A stretch of 40,770 bases of DNA from Escherichia phage mellemsur: sequence record MN850570.1, one strand, 5' to 3'. This document shows, piece after piece, positions 2,372-29,790 of this stretch (positions are counted from its first letter, which is position 1; the number at the start of each line of letters is the position of its first letter). The notes beneath the pieces are model-generated. The model ran no database searches. It was not told where the DNA came from and saw nothing but the letters and a program-made list of their open reading frames with translations. Both the position numbers and the translations under genes were made by a program.

Positions 2372-2519
2372 GATGTTACCCCTTGTCAGGTTGGTTGATT
2401 TCACATAGCGCCTCGCAAGACGCTATAGGCTATCAGCCACGGCGACGGCTCAGTCGCTGGTCAATGACCCAGCAGGCCGCCGCTATAACACACAGTGCAG
2501 TGAACATAGTCATGCCCCC

Positions 2520-2909
2520 TTACTCCACTACCCAAAACAGTTCACCGTCATAAGTCCAAGCGGTATGCTGCCCGGCTTCCATCTGCTCGCCTGTTTTGCT
2601 GACCAGCTTGCCAGCAGGCTTGCCCGGATACGGTGAATCCATGAAGATTGCATCATCATCTTTGGTCACTACCATGATGCAGTCCTGTTCAAGAGCTTTA
2701 CAGAACAGCTTAACAGCCTGCCTGATTTCGTAGATTCCATCGACAGGAAATACCATGCTCAACTCATACTGATTGTCGAACTTGCCTGTCAGCGTGACCG
2801 GAATCACTCCGAACATATCCTGCACCGTTCGCAGTGCCTTGCAATGAAGCGCCAGATTAACACATTCAGCGTTATTCGGACGATATGCGCTTGCATAGAT
2901 ACGGTACAT
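2520..2909 (-). CDS. hypothetical protein, first gene downstream of early promoter cluster
   Basis: 129-aa ORF with GGAG Shine-Dalgarno; preceded by about 400-nt leader. Confidence 0.5.
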   Translation of the reverse strand: MYRIYASAYRPNNAECVNLALHCKALRTVQDMFGVIPVTLTGKFDNQYELSMVFPVDGIYEIRQAVKLFCKALEQDCIMVVTKDDDAIFMDSPYPGKPAGKLVSKTGEQMEAGQHTAWTYDGELFWVVE

Positions 2910-3341
2910 AGTTATTTCTCCAGTTGTTGGCTATTTTCAGGTGGATAGTGAACCCATTGTGACGCGCCGTACAGTCTGCACTCGTTGGCATTGATTGGCT
3001 TGTCGGATTCACTACCCTGAAAAATCGCCCCGCCCATTTCGCGCCGTGGATATTGTCTGCATCCACTCTCAGGAGTCCTCCAGCAGTCCGGCTCACCGTT
3101 TCCAGCTTGCCTACCTACCCGCTTCACTCCGCGCCTTATAAGACGTTCGGGATTGTGCTGATACTGCGCTGCGTCTATCGCGCTTCTCCGTTCCCATCGC
3201 ACCGGGCGCTACCCCTATTGCCTTTCGGCGGTGCCCTCACCAGTTCCTAGCTGCGCCGGATACCCATGAGGCCGAGACACTACGTGGCCTGTTTACGTTC
3301 ACTCAGAGCAGGTTGTTTTGCAACCTTTCAACTCGGTGCTG

Positions 3342-3370
3342 ATTACATCACATCGTATTCAGCGTGTCAA
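3342..3370 (-). promoter_or_regulatory. sigma70-like early promoter (TTGACA-N17-TGTAAT on minus strand)
   Basis: plus-strand attaca at 3342-3347 and tgtcaa at 3365-3370 with 17-nt spacer. Confidence 0.45.
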
Positions 3371-3421
3371 CTACTTTTTACTTCTGACTGACTGGCTTGC
3401 TGCCCTGTCAATCTGGAGCGT

Positions 3422-3450
3422 ATTACAGCATACTCGTTTCATCCTGTCAA
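3422..3450 (-). promoter_or_regulatory. sigma70-like early promoter (TTGACA-N17-TGTAAT on minus strand)
   Basis: plus-strand attaca 3422-3427 and tgtcaa 3445-3450, 17-nt spacer. Confidence 0.45.
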
Positions 3451-3558
3451 CCGTTTTATTCAGCGCCCGTTCTGAGATGAATAATCCGTACCAGTTTGCC
3501 TGCGTGTGTTTTAACGTCTTTATCAATGACTGTTTGGCTTGCTGGCTGACGTGGAAGC

Positions 3559-3587
3559 ATTACAGCATAGTGAGCTTGCCTTGTCAA
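3559..3587 (-). promoter_or_regulatory. sigma70-like early promoter (TTGACA-N17-TGTAAT on minus strand)
   Basis: plus-strand attaca 3559-3564 and tgtcaa 3582-3587, 17-nt spacer. Confidence 0.45.
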
Positions 3588-3661
3588 TACACTCCAGATT
3601 GTTAAAGAGCAGTGCTACCGTTCAATCTTGTCTACTGGGCTAGTGCCTTTCGACGTGATGA

Positions 3662-3691
3662 ATTACAGCACATAACCAAAACAGTTTGCAA
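3662..3691 (-). promoter_or_regulatory. sigma70-like early promoter (TTGCAA-N18-TGTAAT on minus strand)
   Basis: plus-strand attaca 3662-3667 and ttgcaa 3686-3691, 18-nt spacer. Confidence 0.4.
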
Positions 3692-3712
3692 GTATTATTT
3701 TCAAGAAAAGTG

Positions 3713-3731
3713 ATAAGTTACTGTAATCATT
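3713..3731. repeat. direct repeat copy 1 (ataagttactgtaatcatt) in AT-rich spacer
   Basis: 19/19 identity with 3792-3810; flanks also similar (gagatta / agataatta). Confidence 0.6.
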
Positions 3732-3791
3732 GAGATTAAAGTTTGATTGGATAATCACAACACTGGATAGAATACCGTTATCAGATAGGTC

Positions 3792-3810
3792 ATAAGTTAC
3801 TGTAATCATT
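3792..3810. repeat. direct repeat copy 2 (ataagttactgtaatcatt)
   Basis: identical to 3713-3731, about 79 bp apart. Confidence 0.6.
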
Positions 3811-3818
3811 AGATAATT

Positions 3819-3850
3819 ATGAAAGTGTCTATAGTGATATAGTATCGCTA
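3819..3850 (-). promoter_or_regulatory. conserved element copy B (minus strand reads tagcgatactatatcactatagacactttcat)
   Basis: 21-nt core tatcactatagacactttcat identical to 25712-25732 (there on plus strand); contains CACTATAGA, the core shared with T7/SP6-type promoters. Confidence 0.4.
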
Positions 3851-4320
3851 GATACGCAGAGCGAGCGCGGCGCAGCCGAAACAAGCGAGCGCCGAACGGA
3901 TGACGGATGGCAGACCGTAGGACTGACAGACGGCAGACAGTGAAGGCAGTAGGACAGTAACAGCAGGTAGCAGAGCATGACGCGCAGAGCTGGCAGGCGC
4001 AGACAGTAGACCGGCACACCACACAGCAGGACGGCAGCACCACGCCGCACACCGCTACACACCAGCACCACACAGCACCACGAAAAGAGACAGATACCCG
4101 CACGACCGAGCGCAGCACGCAGCACCGCACAGCCAGCGCAGAGCGTCCCCATAGGACAGCACCGCACAGCACAGCCAGCAGGACAGCGCACAGCACGTCA
4201 CACGGCAGACGATGAAACGCGACACGCACGAGCTATACCGCACGCAGGCAATCCTCTTGACGCGCCGCGCAGCGCACGCGAGCAAATATCGCGCACGTCG
4301 CGAGGCTAATCCGCGCACAC
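3851..4320. repeat. T-depleted (plus strand) degenerate short-repeat tract, presumed genome terminus / terminal-repeat region
   Basis: Manual count roughly 29 T in about 470 nt; recurring CAGCAC/CACAGCA/GACAGC units; lies between last late gene and early promoters. Confidence 0.65.
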
Positions 4321-4384
4321 GTCATGGGGGTACGCGCGGTCATTTGGGTCGAGGGAGGGCCAAGCATAAACGTGCAATTTTCAA

Positions 4385-4406
4385 GCCGGGGTATTGCACC
4401 CACGGC
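4385..4406 (-). terminator. possible hairpin downstream of endolysin gene
   Basis: imperfect GC stem gccgggg...ccacggc; A/U-rich but not U-run tail; weak. Confidence 0.2.
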
Positions 4407-4435
4407 CTGTTCATTGCCTCAGCTTTTGGATACCC

Positions 4436-4972
4436 CTACAGCGTCGCACAGTAAGCGCTACAGCGTTTTGCACGAGCAACCAAGGCATCCCTATAGCGAA
4501 CCACTGTCGGGGCTGTAGAAGCCTTTAGGAACGCAATACGAAGGTCACAGATGGCTGCTGCTGCGGAGTGAGGTTCCAGACGTTTGGCTGCTGCCACGGT
4601 AGCAGGGCCAATAACCCCGTCTTGTGCAACGCCGCATACCCGCTGTAGAGCTTTCGCCGCACGGGAGACACCGGAGTTGACACCGTAGTCAAACACGGCA
4701 CATGCAATCGCAGGGTGAAGCTCGTCACCTCGGATGGGGGCGTAGTAATCCCGTCGATAGATTGCTTCGGCTTGTGCTTTGGTGAGGTCTTTGATAGGCA
4801 CGCAAATAGTACCGCCAAGCCCAGTAGGGACACCACAAGCTCGGCCATCCAGTTTGCCATCACGAGCGTCGCTAATTCCATGATTCGTTTCCCCTCCGGT
4901 ATCGCCGGGCAGCTTGGTGTAACCACCTTCTGCCAGCCCGGTGAACCGCATACAGATTTCAAAGTTAGTCAT
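4436..4972 (-). CDS. endolysin, GH108-type N-acetylmuramidase with C-terminal peptidoglycan-binding-like domain
   Basis: N-terminal EGGY...D-x-GG-x-T-x-x-GI motif typical of GH108; no signal/SAR sequence; ATGA overlap with upstream gene. Confidence 0.75.
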   Translation of the reverse strand: MTNFEICMRFTGLAEGGYTKLPGDTGGETNHGISDARDGKLDGRACGVPTGLGGTICVPIKDLTKAQAEAIYRRDYYAPIRGDELHPAIACAVFDYGVNSGVSRAAKALQRVCGVAQDGVIGPATVAAAKRLEPHSAAAAICDLRIAFLKASTAPTVVRYRDALVARAKRCSAYCATL

Positions 4973-6028: not shown

Positions 6029-6709
6029 TTAAGAGAGTGCGATGCCAGTGATTACACCACTAGCGACAGTGAAGGTAACAGTATCCACGTAGGTGCCAGT
6101 TACCGGGATAGCCAGTGCATCACCGTTATCCACCATGGCCACAGTAGCGGCGAGGTTAAAGCCAGTGAGGGCACCGTTGCTTGCCACGAGAGCAGTGGCG
6201 TTATGAGCGTCAGCACCAGCAGAGTTACGGATGGAGTAAGTCGAACCGTTAAGCACTGCATCGGCGTTAGCTGGGAGCCGCACATTGCTCAGCAGGCCGT
6301 CAGCTACACGGGCGGTGGCAGTGGTGATGCCGAGGATAGAGCCGTCGAAGCGACGAATCTCAGTTGAGTCAGTGTGGTCTACCAGTGCTGCGGTAGACAG
6401 GACGAGCTGTACGTTATCCAGCGTGGTGCCAGTAACGTTGGCTGTGGCATTGTGCGCGTCGTTACCTGCGGAGTTGACCACAGATACAGTAGCGCCGTCA
6501 GCCAGCAGAGCGGAACCTTCCGGCGTACCAGCATAGCCAGCCGCCTCAAGTGCCGCCACCAGATTGGTGATAGCCGTTTCAATATCAGCAGCCTGAGCTG
6601 CCGTCACTGTACGGGTATCATTGATAAAGCGTTGAGTCACATTAGCTGCGATACCGCAGCGATAGCCAAGCTCATAACGCTGTGCATCAGTGATGGTGAT
6701 GATGGACAT
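6029..6709 (-). CDS. hypothetical protein with internal tandem duplication (possible virion-associated)
   Basis: 226 aa, Ala/Thr/Gly/Asn/Val-rich; NSAGNDAHNATANVTG and NSAGADAHNATALVAS repeat units; start overlaps terminase stop. Confidence 0.55.
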   Translation of the reverse strand: MSIITITDAQRYELGYRCGIAANVTQRFINDTRTVTAAQAADIETAITNLVAALEAAGYAGTPEGSALLADGATVSVVNSAGNDAHNATANVTGTTLDNVQLVLSTAALVDHTDSTEIRRFDGSILGITTATARVADGLLSNVRLPANADAVLNGSTYSIRNSAGADAHNATALVASNGALTGFNLAATVAMVDNGDALAIPVTGTYVDTVTFTVASGVITGIALS

Positions 6710-8469
6710 TATTTGATTCTCCGTCGCGTGCCGCGCACAGGTTTATGGCTACGCCACTTCGAGTCATCGTAACCCATTGGGTTGGCAAGGAACTCGCGTG
6801 CGGCAGCCGTCTCGCGCTTGGCAGCTTCTTCATGTTCGTCCTGCTGTAGCACCTCAGCGTGCAGGTACACGGCAGCAGATAGGGTTTCGATACGGTCATC
6901 GTGTGGGATGGATTGACGGTCTTGTGTCAGGTTCTGGAGCTGCCAGAACAGGCTGAACTCTCGACCACCGTTGTTCATCCCGCGACACAGCCGCAGGTCT
7001 TCTTCAACAACGCACCAGTGTACGACGACACGGTGACGCTGCATGATTGGGCCAAGGCGGTTGATGATACGCACCTCTTTCTGGCCGGACGAGTACACGC
7101 CTTCACAGCCAATGGCCAAGCTCTGGCGCTTAATCTCACCTCGGTACATGTTGGTCACGGTGCCGTGGCCCATGTTATCCTCAATGACCAGCCGTTTAAC
7201 CCCGGTTTCAGCGAGCCACTCTACCGCCGCCTTGATGTTTTCCTCCGTCTGGCCGCCGTGGTAGACGTGCATACCGATGACGTGGATAAACGGGCCGACA
7301 GAAGCGGTGGCAATGATAACTGATTCGTCCGACCCACCACCAGCAGGGTCAAGAAACGCCGAGGTATTTTCGAATGGTACATAAGTGTCCGAGAAATCAG
7401 CAGCCAAGAATAGCTGAGCACGAGCCAGTGGGAAATCCAGTGGCAGCTCGGCGGCATGGCGCGGGTGGTTCGACCAATGCAGAACCTCCGGCGCGGACTG
7501 CGTTGAGCCGTGGAAGAAGATTAAGTCTTTGAGATGTAACGTTTGTTTGAGCGCATCCGACAGCGACGTGTCCAGCATGAACTGCAACTGGAAGCCTGCC
7601 TGCTGGTAGTCTCGTTCGTTCTGCAACTGCTTTTCTTCGGAGTAGCGTTGCGGGTCAGTCTGTGCGCCACGGTTCCCAAGGATACCGTGTCCGGTACGCA
7701 GCTCAGGGTGGCCTTCCATCTTCTGCTTAATCCACGGGGCCAGACAGCCGCCGTAGCGTTCTTCTTCCTCAACCGTTGGGAAACGACCGGGCCAGATGCG
7801 AACGTCGAAGCCACGCTGTGGGAGCGTGTTGTAGATGGAGTCTTGAGTCTGTGGCGTGCCGAGGTACAGAATCTCTGCACCATCGTTGGCGATAGCCGCG
7901 AACTCTTTGGTCAGGGTGTTGATACGGGCGCGGTTGGCAGGAGAGCTACCGTTACTGGTAGTCTCCACGTCATCGGCAATCAACAGCGATACGTGGTTCC
8001 CCTGTAGCTGGCCGAAGATACCGACCGCTTTTACAGAGGGCTGTTTGTCAGGGATACGGAACGCGTGATGCACGTCGAAGCCGTCAGTAAATGACGTACG
8101 TGCGCCAGCGCGAGTCTCAGGCTTGAGCCATTCCAGACGTTCCCACTGCATGATAGCCGACACGATAGCGTGCGACAGCGTACCAGCATAGTCGTCGGAA
8201 CCGGACACAAGCAGGACAGTGGCGTTCGGCATCTGCACAAATTCGTACAGAGCGCGAGCAATACCGATGGTGGACTTTGCCTCACCACGCTGCGCCATGA
8301 CGCACTTGTTCTTGAGCGTCCTGTCGGCCATGTAGCGGCCAATGTCGAGCTGCATTTCAGTGAGGTCAAAGCCCAGCCATGCGAAGTAGTCATGCAGGAA
8401 CAGCGGGAAGTTGTTCTCGTAGTGGGCGCGAACGATTCCTGCCATCACCATGCGGCGTTGTAAATCCAT
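6709..8469 (-). CDS. terminase large subunit
   Basis: 586 aa (same length class as T7 gp19); position after tailspike and small ORF as in T7-like late operon. Confidence 0.75.
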   Translation of the reverse strand: MDLQRRMVMAGIVRAHYENNFPLFLHDYFAWLGFDLTEMQLDIGRYMADRTLKNKCVMAQRGEAKSTIGIARALYEFVQMPNATVLLVSGSDDYAGTLSHAIVSAIMQWERLEWLKPETRAGARTSFTDGFDVHHAFRIPDKQPSVKAVGIFGQLQGNHVSLLIADDVETTSNGSSPANRARINTLTKEFAAIANDGAEILYLGTPQTQDSIYNTLPQRGFDVRIWPGRFPTVEEEERYGGCLAPWIKQKMEGHPELRTGHGILGNRGAQTDPQRYSEEKQLQNERDYQQAGFQLQFMLDTSLSDALKQTLHLKDLIFFHGSTQSAPEVLHWSNHPRHAAELPLDFPLARAQLFLAADFSDTYVPFENTSAFLDPAGGGSDESVIIATASVGPFIHVIGMHVYHGGQTEENIKAAVEWLAETGVKRLVIEDNMGHGTVTNMYRGEIKRQSLAIGCEGVYSSGQKEVRIINRLGPIMQRHRVVVHWCVVEEDLRLCRGMNNGGREFSLFWQLQNLTQDRQSIPHDDRIETLSAAVYLHAEVLQQDEHEEAAKRETAAAREFLANPMGYDDSKWRSHKPVRGTRRRIK

Positions 8470-8774
8470 TAGTGCATCATCCCGCTATCTTCTGCGATTG
8501 AGTTGATGGCAGCAGACATGATATCTTTACGACCTGCTTCCGTTTTCTCGTTATTGAGCTGCTCTTGCAGCGCGAGTAAATCGTCGGCGTGGTCTTTATC
8601 AGCCTGAATACCGTTATCTTTCAGGAACTGGCGAAGTACGGACAGCTCAGCCGCCGCCATAGGTTCGATGATATTGCCGTGTTCATCTTTCCTACGAGCG
8701 TCGGCCAAGCGGTCGGACAGATACTCCACCAGCATCCGGTGCAGCCCGTCGAGCTGCTTATTCACGGATGCCAT
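8469..8774 (-). CDS. putative terminase small subunit
   Basis: 101-aa helical/acidic protein immediately upstream of large terminase with TAATG overlap; assignment by synteny only. Confidence 0.45.
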   Translation of the reverse strand: MASVNKQLDGLHRMLVEYLSDRLADARRKDEHGNIIEPMAAAELSVLRQFLKDNGIQADKDHADDLLALQEQLNNEKTEAGRKDIMSAAINSIAEDSGMMH

Positions 8775-8785
8775 GTGGTTTCTCC

Positions 8786-11158
8786 TTAGATGTAAGCCAC
8801 CGGGTAGGTAGCGGCGAGCTGCGTTCCCGCAGGGATTGCCGTCACAAGGGGCGGTGTAATGTCGATGCGCACCGGGTTTCCGATGTTGTTGTCCACCTGA
8901 TATGGAGCACGCACCACCGTTACAGTGAGCGTACCGCCGCTCGGCCCGGCACCCGGAATGTTGAGCCGAGTACCAGCAGAGATTGGCTTATGGTAAAGCC
9001 ACGAGGTGGATGCCTGAGTACCAGCCGGAGTCAGGTTCTGCTCCAGATACGTCTGGCCAGCGGCAGCAGCACGTACCTTGAAGTTGTTGCCATCATCCGG
9101 GATATACGCACCGAACCGGGTCACGATGAAATTGCCACCTGAGCCATCGGTCTTGAACAGCACAGTACCTTCGCAGAACTCTTTCCCGGTAGGGAACTCA
9201 TTACCGTCAAGGGTAGCGAGGTCGTTCGGCAGCGTGTACATGCGGTTGACCGGGGACAGGATGACACCCACGTTACCTTGGATGTTGGTGTACGGGATAG
9301 CACGCACGTTGGAGTTCAGCGTACTGATATCCGAGTAGCGAGCCTTACTGTACAGCGCACCCTCGGTCATGCCCGGCCCGTAGAAGTTCACGTTCACCAT
9401 GTTGAGAACAGTCTTCTTACGCGGGTACAGACCGTTGGATGACGTACCGCCGCTGGAGTCGTCGCCCACAGCGTCGAACTCCACACCAGTAACGTTGGTC
9501 ATATTCAACAGAGTTGCCACACCGAACAGCGTCATCTTGTAGCAGTGGATATTTTCAAGGTGGTACGTGTTGGTGTTGTCATCGTCGGAGCCGACACCAG
9601 CGTAGAAGCGCCCGGTGCGGGTCTGTACGTTACGCACAGTCATGTCAAACGATGGGCAAGCTACACCCGGCGTACCGCCAGCACCTGCTTGGTTCGCACC
9701 CCACTCCAGCATCACGACACGAATGTCGCCCGGCGCGGTAGACCCGGTGTTCAGAGGCTCACCGACTACACCGTCAATGGTCATGCGTTTGCAGCCGTAC
9801 GTGATTACGCCAGCGGCGCTCAGGCCAGTACCGATAGACACGGATAGGTCAGGGTTGGCCACTACGTTCTCGCAGGTGCTGTCACGCGTAACCTCGAAGT
9901 GGACGACCTGACGCACGCCACGCGGAGCATGGACGTTACGGACAGTGACGTTCTTCGCATACTGCGTCTCAGCAGCATCCCAACCAAACGGGCCTTGACC
10001 AGCGATACCGATACCGATACCCCAGTTGGACAGGGGGATTGGCGCATTGGTGCCGTCGATGTTCTCAAGGAAGATGTTCTCAATCAGCAGGCCACCATCA
10101 TAGTGCTTGTTGATTACGTTCATCTCGATACCGTCACCCTGCATATCCATCATGGTAATGCCACGGATAACGCCGTTGGTGATAGCCTCACCAGTACCCT
10201 GCTGGAGAATACCGAACTTGCCATTGCGGTGGATACCGTTCTCAATGACGTAACTGCCCCCGGCGATGTTGCCTTGGAACAGGATAGACGTAACCTTGGA
10301 GTTACTCGGCGCACTGGTGAACTCATAGTCAGCGATGCGTACCTCACCACCCCAGTAAGCTACACGGACAGTGGAGGCCACGAAGTTACGGAAGGTGGAG
10401 TTCAGTAGGCGAATGTCAGCCTTGCCGTGCCACGTACCGCCTACGACCTCAATACCGTCCATCAGGACAGTGGAGTCCACCGTACCTTCCCAGCCACGAG
10501 CGTCAACGACCTTGCCGTTGGCTTTCGCATAGTCGAAGCAAGCCTGTACCGCAGCGGCGACAGAGGCGTACCCGGTGTTGTTGGTGAACTCGGACAGGCA
10601 GACGGTATCCTGACGGTCGAGGAACGTGCCCCCGCCGAGAGTACCAATCCACTTACCGCCGTCAGCCATTGCCAGAGCAATCGCCAGAGCGGAGTCCGGG
10701 ATATCAACCAGAGGAATCATGAACGGCTGGCCATTGCTGTCAAAGCCCAGTGCCTTGTTGCGGCGGCCAGCGACGTTCGGTAGTGCGTTGATAGAGACCT
10801 CGGAGTTCGGAACACGGACGGCGCGGTCAAGCGGCGCGAGCCATGCTTCCTGAGTTTCCTCAGCCTTGAACAGAATCTGCTCAAAGTTCTCGTCAAGGTT
10901 CTGCCCGGTGAAGGCAGCATCTTGGCCGAACTTGTTCAGCAGAACCTCAGTGGTGTAGCGTTGTAGTCTGACAATCACCCCGGCGAGCGGGGCGGTGTCG
11001 AAGATAATCTGTTTGGTCACAGAGTTATAGGTGTACCCTTCCGTTTGGAGTTCGGAGTTGAGGTACACCTGAATCTCAGTGAACACGCGCTGCTCAAACG
11101 TGACGAGGAATGCGGTCTGTGAACCGTTCGCCACGTAAGCATTGTAGCTGTTCGCCAT
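8786..11158 (-). CDS. tail fiber / tailspike with beta-helix (depolymerase-like) domain
   Basis: 790 aa; N-terminus resembles T7 gp17-type particle-attachment region; central region has repetitive G-x-x-NV / VxNV beta-helix-like pattern. Confidence 0.65.
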   Translation of the reverse strand: MANSYNAYVANGSQTAFLVTFEQRVFTEIQVYLNSELQTEGYTYNSVTKQIIFDTAPLAGVIVRLQRYTTEVLLNKFGQDAAFTGQNLDENFEQILFKAEETQEAWLAPLDRAVRVPNSEVSINALPNVAGRRNKALGFDSNGQPFMIPLVDIPDSALAIALAMADGGKWIGTLGGGTFLDRQDTVCLSEFTNNTGYASVAAAVQACFDYAKANGKVVDARGWEGTVDSTVLMDGIEVVGGTWHGKADIRLLNSTFRNFVASTVRVAYWGGEVRIADYEFTSAPSNSKVTSILFQGNIAGGSYVIENGIHRNGKFGILQQGTGEAITNGVIRGITMMDMQGDGIEMNVINKHYDGGLLIENIFLENIDGTNAPIPLSNWGIGIGIAGQGPFGWDAAETQYAKNVTVRNVHAPRGVRQVVHFEVTRDSTCENVVANPDLSVSIGTGLSAAGVITYGCKRMTIDGVVGEPLNTGSTAPGDIRVVMLEWGANQAGAGGTPGVACPSFDMTVRNVQTRTGRFYAGVGSDDDNTNTYHLENIHCYKMTLFGVATLLNMTNVTGVEFDAVGDDSSGGTSSNGLYPRKKTVLNMVNVNFYGPGMTEGALYSKARYSDISTLNSNVRAIPYTNIQGNVGVILSPVNRMYTLPNDLATLDGNEFPTGKEFCEGTVLFKTDGSGGNFIVTRFGAYIPDDGNNFKVRAAAAGQTYLEQNLTPAGTQASTSWLYHKPISAGTRLNIPGAGPSGGTLTVTVVRAPYQVDNNIGNPVRIDITPPLVTAIPAGTQLAATYPVAYI

Positions 11159-14100
11159 TATTCACCCTTAACTGCTTCGTTGAGTGCTCGGACACCCGGC
11201 ACAATGGAGATTAGTGGGAGAGCCTGAATGATGTTCCCGGCTGCCTTGCGAGCGTTATGCCCGGCTTGGTCGATATCGCCAGTGGCCAGACTACCTGCTG
11301 TAGCAGAGGTGGCACCAGCAACACCGTACAGACGGTCGAGGAACAACAGACCCGGCGCACCAAAGCTGCGCTGCTGCCCGGTCAGAACTCCAGTGAACTC
11401 AGAGGCAAAGCCGATAGCGCCGAGATAGTTCAGTGCCTGACCAGCCAGTTTGTTCGGAGCCATGGTATCCGGGTCAGAGAATGCCTTACCGGAAATCACG
11501 TTATTGGCAGCAGTGGCCATCATCGCCAGCGGATACTGGTACGCCATCAGCGTTGCCAGCCCACGGGCACCCTCACGATTCCAAGTACCAACCAGAGTCT
11601 TGTTGTGCGTTGCCGCGACGAATCGACGGAACGTAAACAGGAACTTACCCAGCGTACTGAACTCAGCAAATGCAGGCAGCTCACCTACGCGAGCGCGAAC
11701 AATAGCGTCATCCATGGCATTCATCATGACAATGCGAGAGCGATTGAACACCCCTTCATCCCAAGCATCAGGCTTGGTGCCATGAGTACCAACCTGCTTG
11801 CGAATGTCAGCCAGCAGCGCGTCATTGGCACCGTAGGTTTTCATGGCTGCAATAGCCTTGGCATCACCTTCGGCTGCCTTACGCAGCGTCTGCATCACGA
11901 GCGCAGCATTGGTTCGAGTCTGGTGGAAGTGGATGTATTTCTGCATGTTGATGAACATCGTGGCATCGCGCAGGTGTTCCATACGCATGACCCACGGAGA
12001 CTTATCCGCAGAGAACATGTCGTCATAGTGCTGCATGATTGGGCGCATACGAATATCACTCGCTACAGCCGCAGTCAGCGCTTCCTCGGCATCCAGAGCC
12101 AATTGACGACCTTCCTTAGTAGACACCCTCATTTGCTTAAATAGTGCGCGTGCTTCGGGAATTGTACGCATCATGGCGCGAAACGTATTGACTGCCCCGA
12201 AACGTTGCATCATCGTGCCGTATTCTACCAACTGCCACAGGCCAGATGCAGCCAGACCAGTCGCCTGAGTCAGTGCCGAAAGCTGGCGCATGAACTCCGG
12301 CATTTCCTCACCAACAGGAGCACCTTGGTAGTAAGCCATGATGTTGTCGTATTGGTCGAGAGCCTTACGGCGTGCCGTGCTATCCGGGATGGATTTGGCC
12401 AGAGCCTCGCGAGCGGCGGCGCGTTCAGCATCAGTACCCAGTCCAGCCTCATGCAGAGCCAGTCGCCCGGTAATGCGGCGGTTATAGCTGTCCATCATAC
12501 TGGTGATGCTGTCGTCGAACAGGTCACGCACCTGCAAGTTAGGGCCGAGCTGGTGCATCATGTCGATGTTGATACGGCTCTTGAGCATCGACGGTCGGCC
12601 AGCGTCCGAGCCAGACTCACGAAGGAGTGCGGAAGCACGGGCCTTGGCAGCCTCGTCGAGACCTTTCGCGTTCTCAATGATTTCGAGCAATTCATCGCGA
12701 CCTTCCTTGTTGATAATCATACCGGAGTTGTCGATACCGTAACCCTTACGACGAGCACGCTCAACCATGGCATGGGCAATGACGTTGGCAGTCGGACGGT
12801 CAGTACCGATACCGCGCTGCACAGCGGTCGTCATCTGCTTCATGAATGGCTTCTTGCCGAGCAACTGCTCAGCCTGCTCAATCTTGGTCACGTTCATCCG
12901 GCGCGGGTAGTAGTACGGGTTCTTGTCTACGAAGCCCGGTTCCACCATGCCCTTCGCTTCCAGCTCGCGGCCCACGGCGCGGGAGTATTCCCCCAGTCGG
13001 TCGGCGGCAGCGGCCACGTTAGCGTTGGCACCACGGAACTCTTTGTCAATCATGCGCTTGTCCAGCTCGAAACGGACAGCAGCTTCGAACTCCTGCTGCG
13101 CCCGGCGATAGCCCACTGGGTCACGGAAGCGACGGATGTTAGTCCAGCCGTCAGTGTTCAGTGCATTACGCAGGGTGTCCTCGTACTGGTTCAGCAGCAC
13201 GCCAAACCGAGCCTGAGTCTCACGCTGGATTGATGCAGCGGAAGTCATGTTCGGGTTCAGTGGGTCATCCAGCAGTCGTCCGGCGAGCGCACTGGCTTCA
13301 TCGGAGTGCTGACTGAATGACTTGAACAGAGACCATTCAAGGAACGGACGCTTAGGGTTGGTCTGCTCACCGCGACGAGCGAGGTCGAGACCGCGCTGCG
13401 CAGTGGCCCGGATGGATTCCGGCACCTCGTCAACCACAGTAGCGCCACGACCACCAAAGCCCAAGGACATGGCCATTGGCGACATAGCATTGTTCGGGTC
13501 GAACTGCGGTGGGTTGTTCGGGTCAATGCCATTACGACGCTGCATCTCTGCTGCAAATTCCTCTGGCGACAGGTCGGCCAGCGAGCGCTGTACCGGAGCC
13601 GGGCGATAGAAGGCAGTGGTGGCCGCCCCGTGCAGGGCAGCCGCAAAGATGATTTCGTTCTGAGACACTGGGCGTGCTTCGTTACCCACCGCTGTCATAG
13701 TGGCAGCAGTTGAAGCTGCACCGACAGCGGCGGTTCCGAGGCGACCTAATTTCAGGGCAGTGCCTGCTCCCATCGAGAGCAGGTCAGTGGCGAGGTACAG
13801 CGGGTCAGCGAATTGCAGAACCGCGTTCATCACCGGGGCAGTGTGAGCCAACTGGGTACGCTCGCGCATCTCTTGGAGCTGCTGCGTACGCCAGTTGAAC
13901 TCGTCCATGGATTTGGATTTAAACAGGAAGGTTCTGTCGTCTTCACCTACCGGGAACTGCACGTTCTGCAAAGCCTCGTTGGGCTTGAAGTCCGGGTCAG
14001 CCTGAAAGGTAGGCTTGTTGAAGGCGGCATCAAAGAGCTGAGTGGTATCCCAGTTCTTCACAGAAGCGCTCAACGCCGTGGCCATCGGAGTCGCTTCCAG

Positions 14101-14262
14101 TTCCTGCATCTTATCGAACTGCTCGACGGCACCCTGACGAGTGGCATCTTGCAGCGGAGTGCTGAGGTCAGCAGTCTTTACGGGAGCTGGAATCACCAGC
14201 GTAGGGGCATTGGCCCCCTGCTTGGGAGCCATGAACTTGTCGAGCGATTCTTGTGTAATCAT
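11158..14262 (-). CDS. internal virion protein (gp16-like, large)
   Basis: 1034 aa; position between tail tube genes and tail fiber as in T7-like phages. Confidence 0.6.
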   Translation of the reverse strand: MITQESLDKFMAPKQGANAPTLVIPAPVKTADLSTPLQDATRQGAVEQFDKMQELEATPMATALSASVKNWDTTQLFDAAFNKPTFQADPDFKPNEALQNVQFPVGEDDRTFLFKSKSMDEFNWRTQQLQEMRERTQLAHTAPVMNAVLQFADPLYLATDLLSMGAGTALKLGRLGTAAVGAASTAATMTAVGNEARPVSQNEIIFAAALHGAATTAFYRPAPVQRSLADLSPEEFAAEMQRRNGIDPNNPPQFDPNNAMSPMAMSLGFGGRGATVVDEVPESIRATAQRGLDLARRGEQTNPKRPFLEWSLFKSFSQHSDEASALAGRLLDDPLNPNMTSAASIQRETQARFGVLLNQYEDTLRNALNTDGWTNIRRFRDPVGYRRAQQEFEAAVRFELDKRMIDKEFRGANANVAAAADRLGEYSRAVGRELEAKGMVEPGFVDKNPYYYPRRMNVTKIEQAEQLLGKKPFMKQMTTAVQRGIGTDRPTANVIAHAMVERARRKGYGIDNSGMIINKEGRDELLEIIENAKGLDEAAKARASALLRESGSDAGRPSMLKSRINIDMMHQLGPNLQVRDLFDDSITSMMDSYNRRITGRLALHEAGLGTDAERAAAREALAKSIPDSTARRKALDQYDNIMAYYQGAPVGEEMPEFMRQLSALTQATGLAASGLWQLVEYGTMMQRFGAVNTFRAMMRTIPEARALFKQMRVSTKEGRQLALDAEEALTAAVASDIRMRPIMQHYDDMFSADKSPWVMRMEHLRDATMFINMQKYIHFHQTRTNAALVMQTLRKAAEGDAKAIAAMKTYGANDALLADIRKQVGTHGTKPDAWDEGVFNRSRIVMMNAMDDAIVRARVGELPAFAEFSTLGKFLFTFRRFVAATHNKTLVGTWNREGARGLATLMAYQYPLAMMATAANNVISGKAFSDPDTMAPNKLAGQALNYLGAIGFASEFTGVLTGQQRSFGAPGLLFLDRLYGVAGATSATAGSLATGDIDQAGHNARKAAGNIIQALPLISIVPGVRALNEAVKGE

Positions 14263-28518: not shown

Positions 28519-28695
28519 CTACGCAAGACAGGCAAACAGAATAGCAGGGATGACAGCCAAGAATACCCACAGGATAAAGCCTGCTGCACCAGACCTGTCA
28601 ACGTGTGTCTTGTTGTACTGGTCGCACGCAGCCAGACAGACAACAGAGAACAGGGCAAACCATACCACAGCTACAATCCAAAGTAAAACACTCAT
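28519..28695 (-). CDS. small membrane protein
   Basis: about 58 aa with two hydrophobic helices; start moved to MSVLLWIV. Confidence 0.4.
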   Translation of the reverse strand: MSVLLWIVAVVWFALFSVVCLAACDQYNKTHVDRSGAAGFILWVFLAVIPAILFACLA

Positions 28696-29270
28696 TTGCG
28701 TTTCCTTAATTCGAGTTCCAGAATGAACAGCGCATTGCACGCAGCGTGCGCCAGATGGTGCAGGTTGGATTCGCTATCCAGTTCCTCACCCTTGCCCACC
28801 GCCGTCAGGTGCCGGAGCAGCGCTGACTTGTAGCGTTCCTCACCTTCCGGTACAGTCTGCCACGAGTGGGCTGCATACTTCTCAGCGCCGAAGGTGAGCA
28901 CGCTGGCTACAGCCTCCAGTGCATTCGGGCAGCCATCGAACAGCAGTGACATGCGGGGCTTGCCGCCGTCAAACTTCATGCCGCCCGGCCCAGCACTCTT
29001 GGCCACGGCCACCTCAACATCACTGGCCGGGTCGTACGGGTCAACCGGGATGAACGCAGTCTCGACTTCTTTCACCTCGAACGGCTCCAGTACCAGCGTG
29101 TGGGTCTTGCCATCCTTCACGCAGGTGTAGTAATCGCGGCTGTCATTCGGCACATCGTACGGTTCGTCGTACGTCAGGATGATACCTTGCTCAGCAATGT
29201 CGCTCAGCAGCGTGCCAGTACCCCAGTTGCGTGTCGGGTCTAAGATAAACTTCTGACCTTTCTTACCCAT
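28692..29270 (-). CDS. putative dATP/dGTP diphosphohydrolase-domain protein
   Basis: C-terminal half KFDGGKPR...VLTFGAEKY...W...LRHL...ELDSESNLHHLAHAACNALF matches my recollection of the dGTP diphosphohydrolase N-terminal domain family; GGAGG Shine-Dalgarno before MGKKGQ start. Confidence 0.45.
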   Translation of the reverse strand: MGKKGQKFILDPTRNWGTGTLLSDIAEQGIILTYDEPYDVPNDSRDYYTCVKDGKTHTLVLEPFEVKEVETAFIPVDPYDPASDVEVAVAKSAGPGGMKFDGGKPRMSLLFDGCPNALEAVASVLTFGAEKYAAHSWQTVPEGEERYKSALLRHLTAVGKGEELDSESNLHHLAHAACNALFILELELRKRK

Positions 29271-29790
29271 TCGCCTTACCTCCATCGACCTTAGAATCAG
29301 CGCCATCGTATTTAGCATTGGCATGAACATACTCATGATTGTCCTCGTACCGGGTCACTTCATAAACCGTGATGCCGAGGCCACGCATGAAGTCAACGAT
29401 GTGCGGCAGGTCGTCGAAAGCACACACGATGTTCTCAATGCCAATGTCCTCCAGCGCCGCCAGCTTCATCTCTGTGTCTTTACGGCAGTCGCCAATCTCT
29501 CTCATGATTAGTTTGTCGTAAACCACACCAGCTTCGTCGAGCCACTGCTCGGTTACTTCACGGGCCACGGCTCCGCGTCCGGTCAGGATGATAATGCGAT
29601 ACGTGAGGGCCAGAGCGTTCACAATATCAATCGTGTCCTGAAACGCAGGGTCGTCAGCGCCAGCCAAGTTGAACTCGGCCCACGCTTCATCAAGGTGCCG
29701 ACGCTCCGGTGGAGGCAGCAGGTGTAAACGCCAACGGCCATCGGCCAGCGTGCCGTCAAGGTCTACTACTACGGTGTCTTTCATGTGCAT
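29263..29790 (-). CDS. HAD-family polynucleotide 3'-phosphatase (T4 Pnk phosphatase-domain-like, no kinase domain)
   Basis: DLDGTLAD (HAD motif I), TGRG, GDCRKD, AFDD collinear with phosphatase domain of T4 polynucleotide kinase; no P-loop. Confidence 0.65.
   Translation of the reverse strand: MHMKDTVVVDLDGTLADGRWRLHLLPPPERRHLDEAWAEFNLAGADDPAFQDTIDIVNALALTYRIIILTGRGAVAREVTEQWLDEAGVVYDKLIMREIGDCRKDTEMKLAALEDIGIENIVCAFDDLPHIVDFMRGLGITVYEVTRYEDNHEYVHANAKYDGADSKVDGGKANG

Follow-up and report, generated by a model that had tools for sequence, protein, structure and literature searches.

We analyzed the whole 40,770-nucleotide stretch of DNA from Escherichia phage mellemsur (MN850570.1), referred to here as the window, and all positions given are positions within it. 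On the minus strand, a single unbroken, ATG-started open reading frame (ORF) in the ORF list occupies positions 8786 to 11158 and encodes 790 amino acids followed by a stop codon. This is the complete gene of a tailspike colanidase, as identified from the ORF list, from its identity to the corresponding genes of phages megetsur and NST1, and from its match to PHROG 6117. The gene that the initial annotation had placed at 8786-11158, with no strand given, is real and coincides exactly with this one ORF. Immediately upstream on the same strand is the gene for a 1034-amino-acid gp16-like internal virion protein (11158 to 14262, minus strand; PHROG 342, E=9e-166), the TAA stop codon of which overlaps the ATG of the tailspike gene (TAATG). 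Downstream, the gene for the small terminase subunit (TerS; 8469 to 8774, minus strand; PF11123, PHROG 891) starts 11 nucleotides past the tailspike stop codon and is preceded by AGGAGA, and it is followed by the gene for a large terminase subunit (TerL) with a T7-type RNaseH-like domain. Farther upstream, the same strand encodes two more internal virion proteins, tail tubular proteins B and A, the major capsid protein, the scaffold protein, the portal, and a single-subunit RNA polymerase, beyond which lie genes for a DNA polymerase, a helicase, and exonucleases. This gene layout is that of phiKMV-type Autographiviridae. The order internal virion protein, tailspike, TerS, TerL places the tailspike gene between the gp14-16-like internal virion proteins and the terminase, which is the position held by T7 gp17-type fibers. 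Pfam and PHROG annotation of the window revealed no second fiber or spike gene within the structural module. Neither a promoter and terminator scan of positions 2400 to 4500 nor a tRNA scan of the whole window returned anything notable.

The genome is a near-complete Bonnellvirus (Autographiviridae) genome. Mellemsur (MN850570; 40,770 bp, 55.8% GC) was the ninth Bonnellvirus reported by Olsen et al. 2020 (PMC7552041). Positions 1 to 25000 of the window are 98.1% identical over 22.7 kb to Escherichia phage megetsur (MN850608), which is classified in Autographiviridae, Bonnellvirus. The mellemsur tailspike gene has 95.9% nucleotide and 98.9% amino acid identity to that of the megetsur "tailspike colanidase," and 95.5% and 98.4% identity, respectively, to that of the "Phage NST1 colanic acid-degrading protein" (HM214492). 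Bonnellvirus colanidases, including those of megetsur and J8-65 (NC_025445), are encoded at the same gene position, and their amino acid identity to the mellemsur protein ranges from 98.9% (megetsur) to 86.7% (J8-65), which makes the mellemsur tailspike an allelic variant of this type of colanidase. The spike of phage Lidtsur, by comparison, is only 60% identical and has been termed a "unique version." The NST1 enzyme (HM214492 / ADI49571; Firozi et al. 2010) also has 790 amino acids and the same architecture of anchor plus body, and it differs from the mellemsur tailspike by 13 conservative substitutions (T70S, S447T, L469M, S473A, A475S, G477N, V481I, V499A, E560V, D646A, I734V, P770A, and L771I). 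Since only these 13 of the 102 codons that differ between the two genes alter an amino acid, the gene appears to be under strong purifying selection. The mellemsur tailspike is therefore a Bonnellvirus tailspike colanidase, a type of protein that is already known and has been characterized experimentally.

Anchor and body of the tailspike

The first 110 residues (10829 to 11158, minus strand) were compared with known tail-attachment domains. Residues 2 to 104 matched PF03906 (Phage T7 tail fibre N-terminal domain) with E=1.3e-4 and 22.1 bits, approximately 3 bits short of the family's gathering cut-off (25.2 bits). PF03906 was matched by all eight of the Bonnellvirus-type sequences scanned (best E=5.8e-6), and some homologs carry it as a precomputed annotation. 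PHROG tail-fiber families matched residues 4 to 104 with E=4e-18. When a profile of the N terminus was compared to the PDB, it matched the virion-bound podophage fibers 8vbx gp47 (3e-7) and 8es4 Gp44 (2e-6), as well as 23sh gp9 (1.5e-5) and the phiAB6 tailspike (5js4; 0.011). The 8ES4 structure is that of Shigella phage HRP29, and in a phiKMV-like phage the homologous fiber is docked where adaptor and nozzle meet (bioRxiv 10.64898/2026.05.18.726046). By these matches, residues 1 to ~110 are a T7-gp17-type tail-attachment (particle-binding) domain, and the T7 gp17-type N terminus proposed in the initial annotation was borne out by the PHROG families and the virion-bound fibers, with PF03906 just below its cut-off. 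T7 gp17 itself has the same type of domain in its N-terminal ~105 residues and is encoded in the same slot between the gp16-like and terminase genes. However, the mellemsur protein has neither the coiled-coil shaft nor the T7-type tip, and in place of a fiber it carries an enzymatic beta-helix. Residues 111 to 165 (10664 to 10828, minus strand) form a neck or linker that belongs to the same lineage-specific anchor module. They are conserved together with the N-terminal domain and are unrelated in phages with other anchors. In an AlphaFold model of the monomer made from a 26-sequence alignment, pLDDT was below 50 for residues 1 to 24, 72 to 92, and 101 to 133, so the confidence was low within this linker as well.

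The right-handed parallel beta-helix that makes up the enzymatic body spans residues 166 to 620 (9299 to 10663, minus strand). Residues 92 to 790 matched PHROG 6117, "colanic acid degradation," with E=3.6e-232, and phmmer aligned residues 162 to 790 with residues 30 to 621 of gp150 of phage Phi92 (E=2.5e-64), the protein in PDB entry 6E0V, [quoted passage not shown] The region homologous to the crystallized gp150 construct thus begins at residue ~162. PF27800 is present on all close homologs in precomputed annotation, and a Pfam scan with a model set that did not include PF27800 assigned the body to neither a beta-helix nor a colanidase family. The predicted fold is that of the solved family member, and its structural neighbors are all right-handed beta-helices with stacked beta-rungs. 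The initial annotation had given the remaining ~600 residues to a beta-helix; the helix was found at residues ~185 to 620, whereas the last ~170 residues form a separate beta-rich part. This C-terminal beta-rich domain (residues 621 to 790; 8789 to 9298, minus strand) was predicted with pLDDT values of 50 to 95 and aligns with the C-terminal end of gp150. It is lacking in WcaM-type proteins, which match the core of the body alone, and it may serve in trimer stabilization, glycan binding, or both.

The anchor and the body have different distributions. Among Bonnellvirus-type homologs, residues 1 to 110 are 82 to 99% identical and residues 1 to 165 are 78 to 100% identical, even where the identity of the body is 40 to 60%. 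In all lineages that are not of the Bonnellvirus type, residues 1 to 165 are unrelated, whereas all homologs align over the part that starts at residue ~166. Three different anchors were found on this body in the 26 sequences: PF03906 in 8, the P22-type head-binding domain PF09008 in 9, and PF18668, the TSP1/Gp66 N-terminal domain of myophage spikes, in 6. The last of these is carried by the phapecoctavirus-type homologs, whose bodies are ~48% identical to that of mellemsur. Phi92 gp150 (6E0V/6E0W), which is ~25 to 28% identical to the mellemsur tailspike in structural alignments, is a myophage baseplate protein with an N-terminal attachment module unlike that of mellemsur. Judged from these alignments, one body on three attachment modules is a textbook case of the modular exchange of receptor-binding proteins.

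The most conserved part of the body is a core of residues 304 to 470 (9749 to 10249, minus strand), which is 42 to 63% identical across all homologs and contains the putative active site; in the region-wise comparison, residues 331 to 470 were the segment with this top level of identity. Its motifs are GDGIEMNV (D342/E345), NWGIGIG (W379), and RQVVHFE (R416/Q417/H420/E422). In an alignment of 38 sequences with identities down to 19%, the residues L318, D342, N347, G380, G387, H420, E422, and G487 were invariant, and E345, W379, R416, and Q417 were among those that were nearly so. The mellemsur tailspike retains all of the family-conserved residues D342, E345, W379, R416, Q417, H420, and E422, which were invariant or nearly so both in this alignment and in a second one. 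On the basis of conservation, the likely catalytic residues are the invariant carboxylates D342 and E422, which H420 and E345 would assist. The persistence of the invariant carboxylates and histidine in 38 relatives, the strong purifying selection, and the near-identity to the active NST1 enzyme all argue against a non-enzymatic receptor-binding fiber that would resemble an enzyme in its beta-helical shape only. Some beta-helical spikes and adhesins do lack catalysis, the fold neighbors PfbA and Vag8 being examples, and we nevertheless consider this the least probable of the alternatives discussed here. A non-enzymatic fiber fold, which the initial annotation had named as an outcome that would count against its proposal, was not what the structure prediction gave.

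Substrate and chemistry

The proteins closest to the mellemsur tailspike have been shown to act on colanic acid. The His-tagged "colanic acid hydrolase" of NST1 released reducing sugar from colanic acid and yielded no monosaccharides, and its product of 1148 Da is consistent with one repeat unit (PMC9143390). [quoted passage not shown] The initial annotation had proposed a depolymerase that acts on capsule, exopolysaccharide, or O-antigen. The depolymerase body is upheld by the colanic acid degradation of the nearly identical NST1 protein and by the matching beta-helix fold, and the range of targets can be narrowed to the exopolysaccharide colanic acid because of the 98.4% identity to the characterized NST1 enzyme. 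From the activity of these 98%- and 87%-identical proteins, we infer that the mellemsur tailspike degrades colanic acid as well.

A depolymerase for some other glycan, such as an O-antigen, a K capsule, or an exopolysaccharide of the amylovoran or stewartan type, to which the colanidase label had merely been propagated, was also considered. Most of the database labels ("tailspike colanidase," "colanic acid degradation") have indeed been transferred by homology, and a few changes can be enough to shift the specificity of a beta-helix spike. However, the mellemsur protein differs from the tested NST1 enzyme by just the 13 substitutions listed above, none of which falls at an invariant position, and its relatives were isolated on K-12, a strain that itself has neither O-antigen nor K capsule. 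A different substrate is thus a very slim prospect.

Since the NST1 enzyme frees reducing ends and whole repeat units, it is a hydrolase. The description of the mellemsur protein as "pectate-lyase-like" in the initial annotation accordingly holds for its fold and not for its chemistry, as the NST1 data are those of hydrolysis. Colanic acid has a backbone of Glc-Fuc-Fuc, with glucuronic acid in the side chain only, and a backbone free of uronate should not be open to depolymerization by beta-elimination. A polysaccharide lyase that acts by beta-elimination instead of a hydrolase is for this reason improbable, if a shade less so than a change of substrate. The fold does not favor it, because beta-helices also house many hydrolases (HK620, Sf6, GH28, and GH87 among them), and the NST1 product, with its reducing ends, is as heavy as one intact repeat unit.

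Taken together, these comparisons support a reading to which we assign a probability of about 0.93, in which the protein would be the sole tailspike of a phiKMV/T7-like Bonnellvirus podophage, made of an N-terminal anchor and a beta-helix colanidase that hydrolyzes colanic acid. Tailspikes are generally homotrimeric, and a trimer is assumed for the mellemsur protein. By analogy with T7-like tails, the trimers would attach through their N-terminal ~165 residues at the junction of adaptor and nozzle, and the C-terminal ~625 residues would form a right-handed beta-helix endo-glycosidase that binds colanic acid, an exopolysaccharide induced by Rcs in E. coli and its enterobacterial relatives. Hydrolysis of the backbone of this polymer to single repeat units would allow the virion to tunnel through the slime and reach the outer membrane, and diffusing enzyme may give rise to the halos around plaques.

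Possible contribution to host range

The initial annotation had also considered the tailspike to be the likely determinant of host range. Such a role is plausible because this is the sole fiber or spike gene of the structural module, and the only spike must mediate first contact with the cell. In several relatives, the spike gene is 87.8% identical while the surrounding genome is ~96 to 97% identical, and this greater divergence is as expected for a locus under host-driven selection. Both of these observations weigh against a model in which the main task of the enzyme is to strip away colanic acid as a barrier, so that another tail component, such as the nozzle or tubular protein B, can bind an outer membrane or LPS receptor that sets the range of susceptible strains. 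This model has support of its own. Many Enterobacteriaceae share colanic acid, which would therefore be a broad and not a serotype-specific receptor or barrier, and spikes that are 80 to 90% identical occur in phages isolated on four host genera, Escherichia, Enterobacter, Kosakonia, and Cronobacter. In addition, J8-65, which was titered on non-mucoid MG1655/T7-R, kills mucoid cells poorly and at room temperature plates on non-mucoid MG1655 as well (PMC4179555), and the Phi92 colanidase, according to a review, lets secondary spikes reach the cell envelope. A literature search for a Bonnellvirus receptor found nothing. We regard barrier clearing as a serious possibility, though at less than even odds.

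Relationship to the host protein WcaM

A search of NCBIfam matched residues 304 to 464 of the tailspike to WcaM (TIGR04004 / NF007517; E=5e-19, 68 bits). Assignment of the tailspike to WcaM was rejected, since the score of 68 bits compares to an equivalog cut-off of ~800 bits and the match is confined to these residues. A phage homolog had earlier been labeled "wcaM superfamily" (PMC6141743). BLASTP aligned E. coli K-12 WcaM (b2043) with the same tailspike residues at 35% identity (E=4e-18), and hhalign extended the similarity to residues 262 to 606 with 99.5% probability. By these alignments, the tailspike is a homolog of the WcaM core and not a WcaM. The product of wcaM, the gene at the end of the colanic acid operon, is a 464-amino-acid, Tat-exported periplasmic host protein that has a twin-arginine signal (SRRTFL) and, unlike the tailspike, neither a virion anchor nor the C-terminal domain; it has been listed among the Tat substrates (PMC9604234). 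The WcaM motifs corresponding to those of the tailspike core are GDAIEWNV, NWGIGIG, and RQLIHVE, and WcaM thereby retains every invariant residue. Shared between the two proteins, in tailspike numbering, are D342, E345, W379, R416, Q417, H420, and E422.

When 1.84 billion representative proteins were searched exhaustively, no more than 55 relatives were recovered. They were either of tailspike length, with the whole body matched, or proteins of 410 to 500 amino acids in which only the core was matched, and all nine of the short relatives that were scanned matched the WcaM models. These results raise the possibility that WcaM is the cell's own periplasmic colanic acid hydrolase and that it forms one small enzyme family with the spike bodies, the members of which would have been exchanged between host operons and phages. 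We hold this proposal tentatively, at somewhat short of even odds. The role suggested for WcaM would be like that of AlgL, PslG, and BcsZ, which are enzymes of other exopolysaccharide operons. A literature search found no paper that gives WcaM a hydrolase role or an assigned function.

As a discovery, the mellemsur gene offers little that is new, being an allele of a characterized enzyme whose relatives already bear the annotation "tailspike colanidase." Members of the colanidase family have been put to use in removing colanic acid from plasmid preparations and in producing low-molecular-weight colanic acid, and as "donor" depolymerases they help other phages to kill mucoid E. coli (PMC4179555, PMC9143390). 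What the present analysis adds is an active site proposed from conservation (D342, E422, and H420) and the finding that this putative site is common to the host protein WcaM. The idea that WcaM may be a hydrolase concerns the family and not the mellemsur gene, which is itself ordinary. The proposed active site and the likeness to WcaM together provide a directly testable hypothesis for the possible function of wcaM, a colanic acid operon gene that has long gone without an assigned one.

Relationship to other phages and accessory open reading frames

The window was compared to the records of the searched phage collection, and the nearest of these was Escherichia phage megetsur (MN850608), a Bonnellvirus, with 98.1% identity over 22.7 kb. 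The window is reverse-complemented with respect to the usual orientation, and it shows circular permutation when set against megetsur. The 226-amino-acid (aa) open reading frame that starts at the TerL stop (positions 6029 to 6709, minus strand) belongs to PHROG 9732, which is of unknown function, and is kept in megetsur as a hypothetical protein. For the 214-aa protein encoded at positions 28692 to 29336 (minus strand), PHROG matches were obtained in the C-terminal half, and their labels conflict, being "dATP/dGTP pyrophosphohydrolase" and "endolysin; inhibits RNA polymerase."

A stretch of low GC content (positions 3000 to 4430; 0.49 in 3001 to 4000) separates the endolysin from the early genes. 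Its sole open reading frame, of 188 aa with a GTG start (positions 3663 to 4229, minus strand), had no PHROG match, and simple scans of the stretch detected no sigma-70-like promoters. The corresponding approximately 1.5 kb of megetsur carries no annotation. This stretch may be non-coding, or it may hold the ends of the genome.

Possible mosaicism and virion anchors of the tailspike

The sequences of Ec1-ASingh, SS-2025, and BHUENT7 were approximately 96 to 97% identical to positions 1 to 25000 of the window but only 87.8% identical in the spike gene (positions 8786 to 11158, minus strand). Compared to its flanks, the spike locus shows signs of mosaicism. In the spike homolog P0002, identity to the window protein was 99 to 100% in residues 1 to 165 and 98% in residues 621 to 790 but only 76% in residues 331 to 470. 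This pattern suggests that recombination has occurred within the spike gene. Among homologs P0008 to P0023, the same colanidase body is carried by three unrelated virion anchors: PF03906, which is of the T7 type; PF09008, a head-binding domain of the P22 type; and PF18668, the TSP1/Gp66 N-domain of myophages.

Relationship of the colanidase core to host WcaM

WcaM is a Tat-exported protein whose gene is the last in the colanic acid operon. Residues 304 to 470 of the phage colanidase, its catalytic core (positions 9749 to 10249, minus strand), were compared to wcaM of E. coli K-12 (L003, positions 6503 to 7897), and both sequence and profile comparisons found the two to be homologous. All of the family-invariant residues (D342, E345, W379, R416, Q417, H420, and E422) are common to the colanidase core and WcaM. 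We looked for an assigned function of WcaM and found none. Taken together, the core homology and the shared invariant residues suggest that this host protein acts as an endogenous hydrolase of colanic acid.
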